Below, piece after piece: positions 22,735-64,000 of a DNA stretch of 64,000 nt. Position 1 is the first letter of the stretch. Every line of letters starts with the position of its first letter. The stretch lies in sequence record NC_055780.1; one strand, written 5' to 3'. A program made the translations under genes and the position numbers. The notes beneath the pieces are model-generated. The model searched no databases, was not told where the DNA came from, and saw only the letters and a list, made by a program, of their open reading frames with translations. This DNA is from Escherichia phage MLF4.

Positions 22735-23544
22735 TTAGAAACGAGATGCGACTTTCGCATATACACTTACAATATCTTCTGCACCTTGTGCAGATTTATC
22801 TTCTACAGCTTCAGTGACGAAATTCAGTCCGGCTGCTTCAGTATCAGGAGTATTTATACTCTCAGTAATAGTGCTTTCATCTTTATTAGATTTCTTCACC
22901 ATTTCTACGATTGCACTCAATTTACTTGAGAATGCATCTGAATAATCAATACCTTCGACCAGAGCAGAGACTTTTTCTTTTTGAGACTCAGTCAGATCTT
23001 TAGTACTTTCGCTCAATGCCACTTCACGCTGCACATAATTGATATATGCGTCACGCTTATTGAGTTCTTCGAACAGACGAGCTGATTCTTCTTTGTGTTC
23101 TTGCAGTTCTTCTTCCATTTCAGCTACAACATCAACTGATTCTTCTGGAACAACAACGTTGTGTTCAACGAAGAGCTCTTTCAATCCACCAAGCATGGAT
23201 TCAAACAGTTCGGCTTTGATGCCTTTATCTACTGCTAATTTATTTTCAGTGAGCCATTCTTTTGCAAGATGGTCAAGGAATTTAGAAGCTTGCTCAGCGA
23301 TTTTCTTCTCAGCTTTTTCTTCTGCTTCTTCTTTATTTTTTTCTACTTCTTCTTCTGCTTTTTCAGCAATTTTAGCGATATGAGATTCAGCTAATTTAAC
23401 GGCGTGCTGCTTGACGGTAGCTTCGAATACAGTGCCGAAAGTTTCTTTTGCTTCCGGAGAAATATTAACTGATTCGAAAATACTATCAAGAGCAACGGAA
23501 GCATCAATTTTCTGCGCTTCGGCAATCAGTTGTTCTTTAAGCAT
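22735..23544 (-). CDS. 22: prohead core scaffold protein gp22
   Basis: 269 aa as in T4 gp22; highly acidic/helical. Confidence 0.85.
   Translation of the reverse strand: MLKEQLIAEAQKIDASVALDSIFESVNISPEAKETFGTVFEATVKQHAVKLAESHIAKIAEKAEEEVEKNKEEAEEKAEKKIAEQASKFLDHLAKEWLTENKLAVDKGIKAELFESMLGGLKELFVEHNVVVPEESVDVVAEMEEELQEHKEESARLFEELNKRDAYINYVQREVALSESTKDLTESQKEKVSALVEGIDYSDAFSSKLSAIVEMVKKSNKDESTITESINTPDTEAAGLNFVTEAVEDKSAQGAEDIVSVYAKVASRF
22851..22858 (-). promoter_or_regulatory. candidate late promoter TATAAATA for gene 23 (inside gene 22 3' end)
   Basis: plus-strand TATTTATA about 135 nt upstream of gp23 ATG; only match in the region. Confidence 0.4.
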
Positions 23545-23571: not shown

Positions 23572-23579
23572 TATTTATA
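23572..23579 (-). promoter_or_regulatory. late promoter TATAAATA (gene 22)
   Basis: plus-strand TATTTATA 28 nt upstream of ATG at 23544, overlapping gp21 stop. Confidence 0.65.
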
Positions 23580-24213
23580 ACGCTTTTTTCATGGCCTCTG
23601 CGAGAGCCATATAGGCGTCATCGGCACTTGTATCGGCTTCCGCCGTCTGTGATTCGGTAATTTCCTTAGGAGTTACCCATGCATCTGGAGCACTTGGACC
23701 CCATACTGCATCAACACCTACAGTTAATTTGAATCCTTCGTTTACGATACGATAACCTTTATTTGTGTCAGTCAATGAACCTAATCCACGAGAAGAAACT
23801 CCTGGAATCCATCCGGCACGAATATTAGCTGCTAATTTATCTCCAGGACCATGGTCACCTTCAATAACACGAGCTCGTCCGTATACGTCATTTCCTTTCC
23901 ACCACATATCTTCTATAATGATAGCGGCTTGCATCGGGTCAACATTAGCGCGTGGAGGATGATTTAATTCTCCGAGAGCTTGTTTAGTTAAAACTTGCTC
24001 ATTAATATAGTCTTTTACCGCTTTTTCTAATATGCGTTTTGGATAAAGACGTTTATTTCTATTGACGACTTCCGCTTGCATAAATATTCCTTCGATGTAT
24101 AAACCAGGTTTTAAACCTAAGTCTTTTCCATCATGAGATTCAAGCATTGGTACGCCATCAATAATTTCGCCAGGTTGACCCCAAGTTTCAATTAGTAATT
24201 GGGGTTCATTCAT
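23575..24213 (-). CDS. 21: prohead core protease gp21
   Basis: 212 aa as in T4 gp21; synteny. Confidence 0.9.
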   Translation of the reverse strand: MNEPQLLIETWGQPGEIIDGVPMLESHDGKDLGLKPGLYIEGIFMQAEVVNRNKRLYPKRILEKAVKDYINEQVLTKQALGELNHPPRANVDPMQAAIIIEDMWWKGNDVYGRARVIEGDHGPGDKLAANIRAGWIPGVSSRGLGSLTDTNKGYRIVNEGFKLTVGVDAVWGPSAPDAWVTPKEITESQTAEADTSADDAYMALAEAMKKAL

Positions 24214-53823: not shown

Positions 53824-54054
53824 ATGAAAACTTATAAAGAGTTTGCTACAGAAACTATTATCACTGAATCTTCTCATGGTATGGAAGTAAAGCTTGGAAT
53901 GGCTTTAGCTGAAGCTGAGCGTCTTTTCTCTCGTATTAAAGAACTTGCTGCTGCAGTCGATCCTTCGTCTTTTAAAGGAGACCAAACTAAAGTTAAAGCA
54001 CTTTTAGCATTATGCTCTGACGCAGGAGAAATCGCTAAAATGGTTCTAAGATGA
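53824..54054 (+). CDS. internal protein (IPI-locus) with capsid targeting sequence
   Basis: 76 aa; N-terminus MKTYKEFATE fits the T4 internal-protein capsid-targeting consensus MK(T/S)YQEF(I/L)xE with an (L/I/A)-x-E gp21-type cleavage site at residue 10. Confidence 0.7.
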   Translation: MKTYKEFATETIITESSHGMEVKLGMALAEAERLFSRIKELAAAVDPSSFKGDQTKVKALLALCSDAGEIAKMVLR

Positions 54055-57891: not shown

Positions 57892-57899
57892 TATAAATA
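57892..57899 (+). promoter_or_regulatory. late promoter TATAAATA (internal protein gene at 57936)
   Basis: TATAAATA 37 nt upstream of ATG, directly after the terminator. Confidence 0.6.
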
Positions 57900-57935: not shown

Positions 57936-58409
57936 ATGAAATCATATACTCAATTTTTAAATGAAGCGGTGTTAAATGAAGCGTCTAGCACCGAAATTCA
58001 AGCTGTCGCAAAAGCAGCCATTGCAGCGGGTAAATATTCCTATAAAGATGCTTCTGATGAATCACGATTCCAATTTGCTCGCGACATGAAAGCAGAAGGA
58101 TTTACGGGGAATGCTGTTAGTATGGCCTGGAAAAGTTTAGTTGCTACTGGCGCTGCTTTTGCAAAGGCTTCGGGTAAACCTGCTCCTAAAGCAGATCCTA
58201 AAGTCACACAAGAGAAAAATATCGTTAAAGGAATTATCTCTAGGTATGAAGCAATTCTTAAAGAGCTTTTAGTAATCAAAACTGAAGGCCAAAAACTAGC
58301 TCGTGCTTATAGTTTCAAAGATAACCCACATGCTCACTCTCTTGAGTATGTTGAAGACATTCAAAAAATTATTAAAGACCGCATTTGGTCTGCTAAACAA
58401 ATCAAATAA
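57936..58409 (+). CDS. internal protein-like (capsid targeting sequence), 157 aa
   Basis: N-terminus MKSYTQFLNEA fits the CTS consensus with L-N-E cleavage motif; Ala/Lys-rich; own late promoter and terminator. Confidence 0.65.
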   Translation: MKSYTQFLNEAVLNEASSTEIQAVAKAAIAAGKYSYKDASDESRFQFARDMKAEGFTGNAVSMAWKSLVATGAAFAKASGKPAPKADPKVTQEKNIVKGIISRYEAILKELLVIKTEGQKLARAYSFKDNPHAHSLEYVEDIQKIIKDRIWSAKQIK

Positions 58410-61795: not shown

Positions 61796-62764
<969 letters not shown>

Positions 62765-62768
62765 AGTT

Positions 62769-62798
62769 GTTTACTTTCTCCTAGAATTGTGATAGTAT
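62769..62798 (+). promoter_or_regulatory. early promoter (GTTTAC-N18-TAGTAT) for denV
   Basis: GTTTAC 5 nt after lysozyme stop; inverted repeat TGTGA...TCACA around the -10. Confidence 0.55.
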
Positions 62799-62823
62799 AT
62801 TCACAGTTACTTGGAGGGATAAA

Positions 62824-63240
62824 ATGACTCGTATTAATTTGACTTTAGTATCTGAACTTGCTGATCAACATTTAATCGCAGAATACCGTGAATTGCCGCG
62901 TGTTTTTGGTATAGTTCGTAAGCATGTGGCAAACGGTAAGCGCGTTAAAGATTTTAAAATATCTTCCGAGTTTATTTTAGGTTCTGGTCATGTTACGTTC
63001 TTTTACGATAAGTTAGAATTTTTGCGAAAGCGTCAATTAGACATTATAACGGAATGCTTAAAACGCGGGTTCAGTATAAAAGATACTGAAGTTCCTGACA
63101 TCAGCGATATTCCAGTAGAATGGAAAAATGATTATAATCCATGCAAATCAGCTATTAAATTGAGTCAACAACGACTTGATGAAAAAATTTTAATGAAACC
63201 ACATTGGTATAAGTATTACGGTAAAAATATTTACATTTAA
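62824..63240 (+). CDS. denV: endonuclease V (pyrimidine dimer DNA glycosylase)
   Basis: 138 aa; matches recalled T4 endo V ([28 protein letters not shown]...[16 protein letters not shown]...). Confidence 0.95.
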
Positions 63241-63249
63241 AGGAAACCC

Positions 63250-63723
63250 ATGAAAACATATCAAGAATTTATTACTGAAGCAGCTATTAATTCTCAAATT
63301 ATTGCTGAATCTTTTACTGATCTTTTGAAATTTAAAAAAGGTCAAAAAATCACTGCTGTATTGGATGATGGTACAGAAGTTGAGATGGATGTACAGGGAT
63401 ATAATTATGCAGTAGATGGAAAACTGTATAATAAATCTCATGCTAAATTTGATTCATTTGACGACTTTGTTAATACAGTTGAAGATGAAAAAACTCGTCG
63501 ATCCATTGTAACTGGTGATGCTAAGGTTCTTATGGCACATGGTCATGAACGCATTCGCGCTAAACAGAATAAAATGGGTGAAGATAATTTTGCATTAGTT
63601 GGTTATCAATCTGGTAAGCAAACTTATGGCTATCAGCGTACTGCTACCATGTATAATAAAAATGGTAAAATTGCCTTTGTAAATAGTAAAGGTTCTATTC
63701 AGTACGTTAAATCGTTCAAATAA
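63250..63723 (+). CDS. internal protein-like (capsid targeting sequence), 157 aa
   Basis: N-terminus MKTYQEFITEA is a near-perfect T4 internal-protein CTS with I-T-E cleavage motif. Confidence 0.7.
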   Translation: MKTYQEFITEAAINSQIIAESFTDLLKFKKGQKITAVLDDGTEVEMDVQGYNYAVDGKLYNKSHAKFDSFDDFVNTVEDEKTRRSIVTGDAKVLMAHGHERIRAKQNKMGEDNFALVGYQSGKQTYGYQRTATMYNKNGKIAFVNSKGSIQYVKSFK

Positions 63724-63864
63724 TATGGGAACAAGCTGGACCTCATGATTCTGTGAGGGATTCCCGCCAACCTGTAATAAGGTCGAGCCCAAGTGCGGTA
63801 ATGGGTAAATACAGAAATGGACAATTCATGCGCCATGGAATGGCCCAAATTTAGAGAGAATAAA

Positions 63865-64000
63865 ATGAGAACATTTTTAACTGGTCCTTATCTATCCCTG
63901 ATGAATGCTTTTACACACCATTCTGACGCTAGAGTAGAAGAAATTTGTAATAGTGGATTTTATGTACCTGATTCGTCGTATTTATTTAAAGAATATTGTA
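63865..64000 (+). CDS. hypothetical protein, 5' partial (runs off window)
   Basis: ATG at 63865 with GAGAGAA SD; open to the window end. Confidence 0.3.
   Translation, partial: MRTFLTGPYLSLMNAFTHHSDARVEEICNSGFYVPDSSYLFKEYC

Follow-up and report, generated by a model that had tools for sequence, protein, structure and literature searches.

The T-even phages are credited with “at least 10” internal protein (ip) genes, a count attributed to Repoila et al. 1994 (PMC12373910), and the view of these genes as a diversified arsenal, which a sequence-only reading of the present locus also put forward, is a published one (PMC3012670, PMC12373910). In T4 IPIII, targeting depends on residues 4 and 7 and processing on residues 8 and 10, and the first ten residues suffice for loading a foreign protein into the prohead core (PMC9026906). 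The internal proteins co-purify with gp22, and gp21 cleaves after the Glu of an L/I-X-E motif (PMC9026906). T4 Ip1, Ip2, and Ip3 were each reported to block a different GmrSD variant (PMC12373910), and Bas37_0260 was reported to block McrBC (bioRxiv 10.1101/2025.11.20.689424).

The system closest to the gene described here is the Ip4 of the T-even phages T2, K3, RB51, RB70, RB32, and RB14. We analysed a 64,000-nt stretch of Escherichia phage MLF4 (NC_055780.1), referred to as the window, in which an open reading frame directly downstream of denV encodes a 157-aa precursor beginning MKTYQEFITEAAINS. Judged from its sequence, the product is not novel: it is the internal head protein that earlier annotators of T4-like phages had named Ip4. 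Its full length matched two family profiles, Pfam DUF7412 over residues 1-157 (E=2.5e-95; score 317 bits, curated threshold 27; profile length 158) and PHROG 3155, labelled “internal virion protein” (E=2.3e-101). Identity to genes annotated as Ip4 in RB51, ime09, JK1, and K3 was 98-100%, with 98.7% for RB51 and 98.7-99.4% for ime09 and JK1; the best match of the structural model in BFVD was UniProt Q38388, “Ip4 [Enterobacteria phage K3]”, at 98% identity. In T2 (AP018813), the lysozyme gene has beside it a 157-aa open reading frame whose product agrees with the window protein at every residue but one (V88A). The T-even Ip4 proteins are of identical length and 98-100% identical to that of the window, so that no substantive difference separates them beyond V88A in T2 and a few substitutions in RB51. 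The RB51 record describes its copy as “Ip4, similar to T2, RB70 Ip4”. The T2 record (extract L010, 4430-4903, minus strand) labels its Ip4 “valyl tRNA synthetase modifier”, and many of the neighbouring gene names in that record look like transfer errors.

The sequence-only reading had listed the gene as a third internal-protein candidate; the protein had in fact already been named, both in UniProt for phage K3 and in the RB51 record, annotated around 2009, and it has its own Pfam and PHROG families. The name Ip4 reportedly originates with Repoila et al. 1994. A tblastn survey of 50,697 phage records found Ip4 in 469 of them. In 305 of the 469, all Tequatroviruses of Escherichia, Shigella, Yersinia, and Citrobacter, identity was at least 95%, and about 160 records, from T4-like phages of Klebsiella, Salmonella, Serratia, and other hosts, showed 60-80% identity. 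Ip4 is thus among the commonest internal proteins in Tequatrovirus and in related Klebsiella and Salmonella phages. The coordinates of the gene and of the features discussed with it are collected in Table 1.

Table 1. Features of the ip4 locus and of the head genes relevant to it (positions in the window).
Feature	Position	Strand	Basis or remark
gp22 scaffolding core protein	22735..23544	-	Pfam T4_CASP, E=3.1e-90; expected partner of the targeting sequence
gp21 prohead protease	23575..24213	-	Pfam Peptidase_S77, E=1.5e-111, and tblastn; expected Ip4-cutting enzyme
Two exact T4 late-promoter motifs, TATAAATA at 62236 and 62249	62236..62256	+	Upstream of e; nearest such motifs upstream of ip4
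Gene e (lysozyme)	62270..62764	+	Pfam Phage_lysozyme; 5' anchor of the variable ip locus
Early-promoter/stem-loop-like motif	62769..62815	+	GTTTAC, 18 nt, TAGTAT, and imperfect inverted repeat, between e and denV; T4 copies ahead of ipIII, ipII, and denV
denV (endonuclease V)	62824..63240	+	Pfam Pyr_excise, RB51 annotation, and T4 denV alignment; upstream neighbour
Shine-Dalgarno-like AAGGA	63240-63244	+	Plausible ribosome-binding site of ip4
ip4 coding sequence	63250..63723	+	ATG start; stop codon counted in end coordinate; 157-aa precursor
Predicted capsid-targeting sequence MKTYQEFITE (residues 1-10)	63250..63279	+	T4 match; ends in gp21 motif I8-T9-E10
Second candidate gp21 motif I18-A19-E20	63301..63309	+	E20 invariant; position 18 always I/L/M
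3' boundary spacer of the ip4 cassette	63726..63860	+	Between ip4 and vs.8; 135 nt; about 97% identical to T4 and RB51

The recognition of a capsid-targeted internal protein from a near-exact T4 targeting peptide, on which the sequence-only reading was built, held up, both through the Ip4 family match and through the peptide itself. T4 IPII and IPIII, translated from NC_000866, both start MKTYQEFIAEA, and MKTYQEFITEA of Ip4 is identical at 10 of 11 positions; the sole change, A9T, affects the residue that the gp21 L/I-X-E motif leaves free (X). Among 14 family members, down to 60% identity, M1, K2, F7, and E10 were invariant, with Y or F at position 4 and I, L, or M at position 8. The targeting determinants Y4 and F7 are both present in Ip4. 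Distant metagenomic relatives keep a variant N-terminus, MNF.QFLNES. The retention of the targeting residues at the protein level in homologues that have diverged in their DNA indicated selection on the peptide itself. The proposed partners, gp22 and gp21, are encoded in the window, as is the capsid protein gp23.

Residues 11-19 of Ip4 were the lowest-confidence part of the structural model, as would be expected of a linker. In T4 IPI, the cut lies at the equivalent I17-T18-E19, and the subtraction of 19 residues from 95 aa gives the published 76-residue mature form. Given this precedent, the linker-like segment, and the conservation of E20 and of position 18, cleavage of Ip4 is predicted after Glu10, the only site that the sequence-only reading had proposed, and probably after Glu20 too. 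What that reading had called a 157-aa body is correct as the length of the open reading frame but denotes the whole precursor; the expected length of the mature protein is 147 aa for a cut after E10 and 137 aa for one after E20. Like IPII and IPIII, the precursor is basic (pI 8.9, rising to 9.1 after a cut at E10).

Compared with the internal proteins of T4, Ip4 shares with IPIII and IPII, the injected inhibitors of GmrSD from ECOR17 and ECOR21, a near-identical 10-residue targeting sequence, an L/I-X-E site, small size and basic character, the e-denV locus, and a 5' DNA module. It differs from both in that the mature bodies show no detectable similarity, that its gene lies on the other side of denV, and that its target is not the GmrSD of ECOR17 or ECOR21. 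The sequence-only reading had proposed an alignment with IPII and IPIII and had named clear orthology to IPIII as something that would speak against it; the bodies matched at E 0.59 or worse by BLASTP, and Ip4 and IPIII coexist as separate genes in Shfl2 and Roth34, on which grounds orthology with either protein was rejected. No IPIII or IPII homologue was found in the window. T4 IPI, the inhibitor of GmrS/GmrD from E. coli CT596, resembles Ip4 in its targeting-like N-terminus and in a hydrophobic-x-Glu site near residue 19-20, but it is encoded at another locus (57B-tRNA), lacks a site at residues 8-10, and has a different solved fold, which was not among the structure matches of Ip4. Bas37_0260, the McrBC inhibitor of the ipI locus, is like Ip4 a non-homologous protein with a targeting sequence; it differs in locus, is unrelated in sequence, and shows that the class extends past GmrSD targets. 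No published test of Ip4 against McrBC was found in the literature.

The body of Ip4 had no informative relative in fold or sequence. Its AlphaFold2 model was of moderate confidence (pLDDT 70.9, pTM 0.66); a Foldseek search of the model against the PDB gave nothing at E 0.001 or better, a BFVD search returned only Ip4 itself, and the best profile match among the sequences of solved structures had E=0.5. An exhaustive HMM search of 1.84 billion representatives yielded only 8 hits and no bacterial homologue from which a function might be guessed. Three of the 8 were distant full-length metagenomic relatives whose N-termini resemble the targeting sequence; one of these relatives, P0016, had no match among cultured phages, and another, P0015, matched only known Ip4 genes, at below 40% identity. 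Across genera the protein is conserved at 60-100% identity, with 64 invariant positions among 14 representatives, a degree of conservation that would be unexpected in a protein evolving fast in an arms race.

The ip4 gene starts 9 nt after the denV stop codon, and no exact late-promoter motif was present between e and ip4. A late promoter specific to ip4 was rejected, as only one-mismatch variants occurred, inside the e and denV coding sequences. Late synthesis of Ip4 would then presumably proceed by read-through from the e promoters, and no terminator-like site was found on the plus strand between those promoters and ip4.

In the mechanism that we propose, the Ip4 precursor would be made late, probably on transcripts from the e late promoters, with perhaps some early synthesis alongside denV as well. 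Its N-terminal 10 residues would bind the gp22 core, so that Ip4 would be incorporated in the prohead, and gp21 would remove the propeptide after Glu10 and probably after Glu20 too, leaving a basic protein of ~15-16.5 kDa amid the packaged DNA. On injection, mature Ip4 would accompany the DNA into the next host, where it would most likely bind and block one host nuclease that attacks the glucosyl-hydroxymethylcytosine DNA of these phages. The identity of the protein as Ip4, its targeting and cleavage motifs, the genes for gp21 and gp22, and the cassette character of the locus are established by the present analysis, and packaging, the cleavage positions, injection, and the anti-restriction role are what we infer. 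That Ip4 is a packaged, processed, and injected internal protein is a conclusion of which we are very confident, and we hold with considerable, slightly lesser, confidence that it is a member of the T-even internal-protein class that is packaged, processed by gp21, injected, and most likely blocks one host nuclease. Anti-restriction is the best guess for its function because all four internal proteins with known targets inhibit type IV restriction enzymes; that Ip4 specifically inhibits a modification-dependent nuclease is a tentative proposal, to which we give a little less than an even chance. Literature searches for Ip4 in virion proteomics and for Ip4 with phage terms found no report.

Several alternatives to this mechanism were considered. 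An injected Ip4 could act on a target that is not a type IV restriction enzyme, whether another defence system or a host-takeover function in the manner of Alt. Invariant motifs rich in His, Asp, and Glu (H64, H99, and G110-E111-D112-N113) might make up a site for binding or catalysis, and the wide conservation suggests a conserved target. Silas et al. reported no reproducible inhibition of GmrSD variants by ip4-10 (PMC12373910, Supplementary Fig. 9), including no reproducible interaction of ip4 with 15 GmrSD groups, their “ip4” being equated with this family by shared nomenclature. T2 carries a one-residue variant of Ip4 and yet is restricted by the ECOR21 and ECOR17 GmrSD (PMC12373910), so those systems are not its target. 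The protein has no fold or sequence similarity to an enzyme or to a known inhibitor, however, and the precedent of the four internal proteins with known targets points to type IV enzymes; we regard an action outside type IV restriction as unlikely. A related reading combines two proposals. Given its conservation in phages of five or more genera of host and the failure of the native T2 copy against the known GmrSD systems, Ip4 may target a widely conserved enterobacterial factor other than GmrSD; and it may mature by a double cut (Glu10 and Glu20), with a bipartite propeptide of 20 residues that unites the site types of IPII/III and of IPI. As a whole, this combination is somewhat unlikely.

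The lack of a GmrSD target for ip4 would also fit a mainly structural or DNA-associated head component, one that assists in assembling the core and head or offsets the charge of the DNA and that stands in for IPIII in phages that lack it. Ip4 occupies the IPIII locus in a window that holds neither IPIII nor IPII, it is basic and of similar size, its conservation across genera is unusual, and loss of IPIII in T4 raises polyhead formation (PMC9026906). Against such a substitution, Shfl2 and Klebsiella phages carry both proteins, which are therefore not simple alternatives, T4 assembles normally without Ip4 or a relative of it, and IPIII is itself a GmrSD inhibitor; a mainly structural role thus seems quite unlikely. 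It is far less credible, to the point of being highly improbable, that Ip4 is not packaged at all and is a cytoplasmic early product co-expressed with denV, its N-terminal motif being a relic of recombination. The position of ip4 just behind an early gene, without a late promoter of its own, would suit such a product, and the 5' module could persist merely as a driver of cassette recombination. The targeting and processing residues are, however, kept in Klebsiella, Salmonella, Serratia, and metagenomic homologues despite the divergence of their DNA, and in T4 ten such residues suffice for the packaging of foreign proteins. A packaged and injected inhibitor of a host nuclease remains the reading that we prefer. 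Identifying the target of Ip4 would help to chart which defences are overcome by which injected proteins, a matter that bears on host-range prediction for therapeutic T4-like phages.

The arrangement of the locus varied among phages. In T4 (NC_000866) the order is e-ipIII-ipII-denV-vs.8, which agreed with the placement of ipII and ipIII between e and denV given in the sequence-only reading, and the order of e, denV, and then this gene that it gave for the window was borne out by Pfam matches of the neighbours to Phage_lysozyme and Pyr_excise. The window and RB51 share the order e-denV-ip4-vs.8. T2 and Melville have e-ip4, teqsoen has e-denV-ipX(105 aa)-ip4, and moha has e-ip-denV-orf-ipIII. 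The Shigella phage Shfl2 has e-ipIII-ip4-vs.8 without denV, and Klebsiella phage Roth34 has e-ip4-ipIII-like, as adjacent separate genes. In T2, denV is not annotated, and the space between e and ip4 is too small to hold it.

Junctions were counted in phage records with at least 80% of the query covered. The denV|ip4 junction of the window occurred in 163 records, the ipIII|ip4 junction in 14, and the T4-type denV|spacer junction in 26. The arrangement of the window is the commonest in the database and that of T4 is a minority arrangement. The description of the locus as rearranged therefore holds relative to the T4 order but not as a departure from the usual state, since it is T4 that has the less frequent junction.

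A three-way alignment of the window, T4, and RB51 showed ip4 to be a clean cassette of about 490 bp between the denV stop codon and the conserved ~135-nt spacer. In T4, ipIII and ipII occupy the interval from e to the denV promoter region, which is empty in the window, and the ip4 locus holds ipIII, ipII, or other ip cassettes in other phages. Shuffling of ip cassettes is already known for the e-denV-vs.8 locus, one of two variable ip loci. The motif between e and denV (Table 1) appears to resemble the PeSL shuffling motifs (PMC4122927, PMC2839356). A 105-aa gene with a targeting sequence lies between denV and ip4 in teqsoen (L003, 4751-5068; MKTYQEFIAES..., PHROG 3966, “unknown function”), and the corresponding region of slur-type phages has an insertion of comparable size; together these indicated that the denV-vs.8 junction holds 0, 1, or 2 ip cassettes, depending on the phage.

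The ip genes share a conserved 5' DNA module, AAATATTTACATTTAAAGGAAAC, which at ip4 overlaps the denV stop codon. A run of 26 nt, TAAAAATATTTACATTTAAAGGAAAC, constitutes the end of denV and the ribosome-binding site of ip4 in the window and is non-coding ahead of ipII in T4; the extra ip gene of teqsoen is also preceded by it. The T4 copy (extract L002, 3220-3250, minus strand) is identical over these 26 nt to the last denV codons and the ip4 ribosome-binding site at 63213-63246 of the window. The T4 denV product ends in GKAIYA and that of the window in GKNIYI. The shared 26 nt looks like the trace of a past cassette recombination that took part of denV with it or rewrote the denV C-terminus.

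On its 3' side, the cassette is bounded by the spacer, which directly follows denV in T4. The G+C content of the spacer is 0.474, against 0.358 for the window, and its conservation greatly exceeds that of the flanking denV. In the T4 annotation it forms the first ~40 codons of vs.8, a frame that a TAG closes here and in RB51. An Rfam scan of 62700-64000 gave no match beyond two sub-threshold snoRNA matches, which were taken as chance, and the RNA folding of 63724-63868 was not more stable than that of shuffled sequence (z=+0.33).

Only three open reading frames in the six frames of the window matched a relaxed targeting-sequence pattern, starting at 53824, 57936, and 63250. The body of Ip4 showed no significant similarity to the other two past the first 14 residues, as the sequence-only reading had held. 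The open reading frame at 57936-58409 (plus strand) also encodes 157 aa, with the targeting-like N-terminus MKSYTQFLNEA and L-N-E at residues 8-10, and an exact late-promoter motif lies ahead of it at 57892. It matches PHROG 2280 (function unknown), and RB51ORF140, equated with it by length and position, is labelled “hypothetical, flanked by 34 bp imperfect direct repeat” rather than an internal protein. From these features, its product may be an unrecognised packaged protein. The open reading frame at 53824-54054 (plus strand) encodes a 76-aa internal protein that starts MKTYKEFATETIITE; the gene follows 57B in the ipI locus, and its product belongs by profile match to PHROG 3499, “internal head protein”. 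Cleavage of this protein probably occurs at I-T-E, residues 13-15, and not at residues 8-10, where Ala sits at P3.
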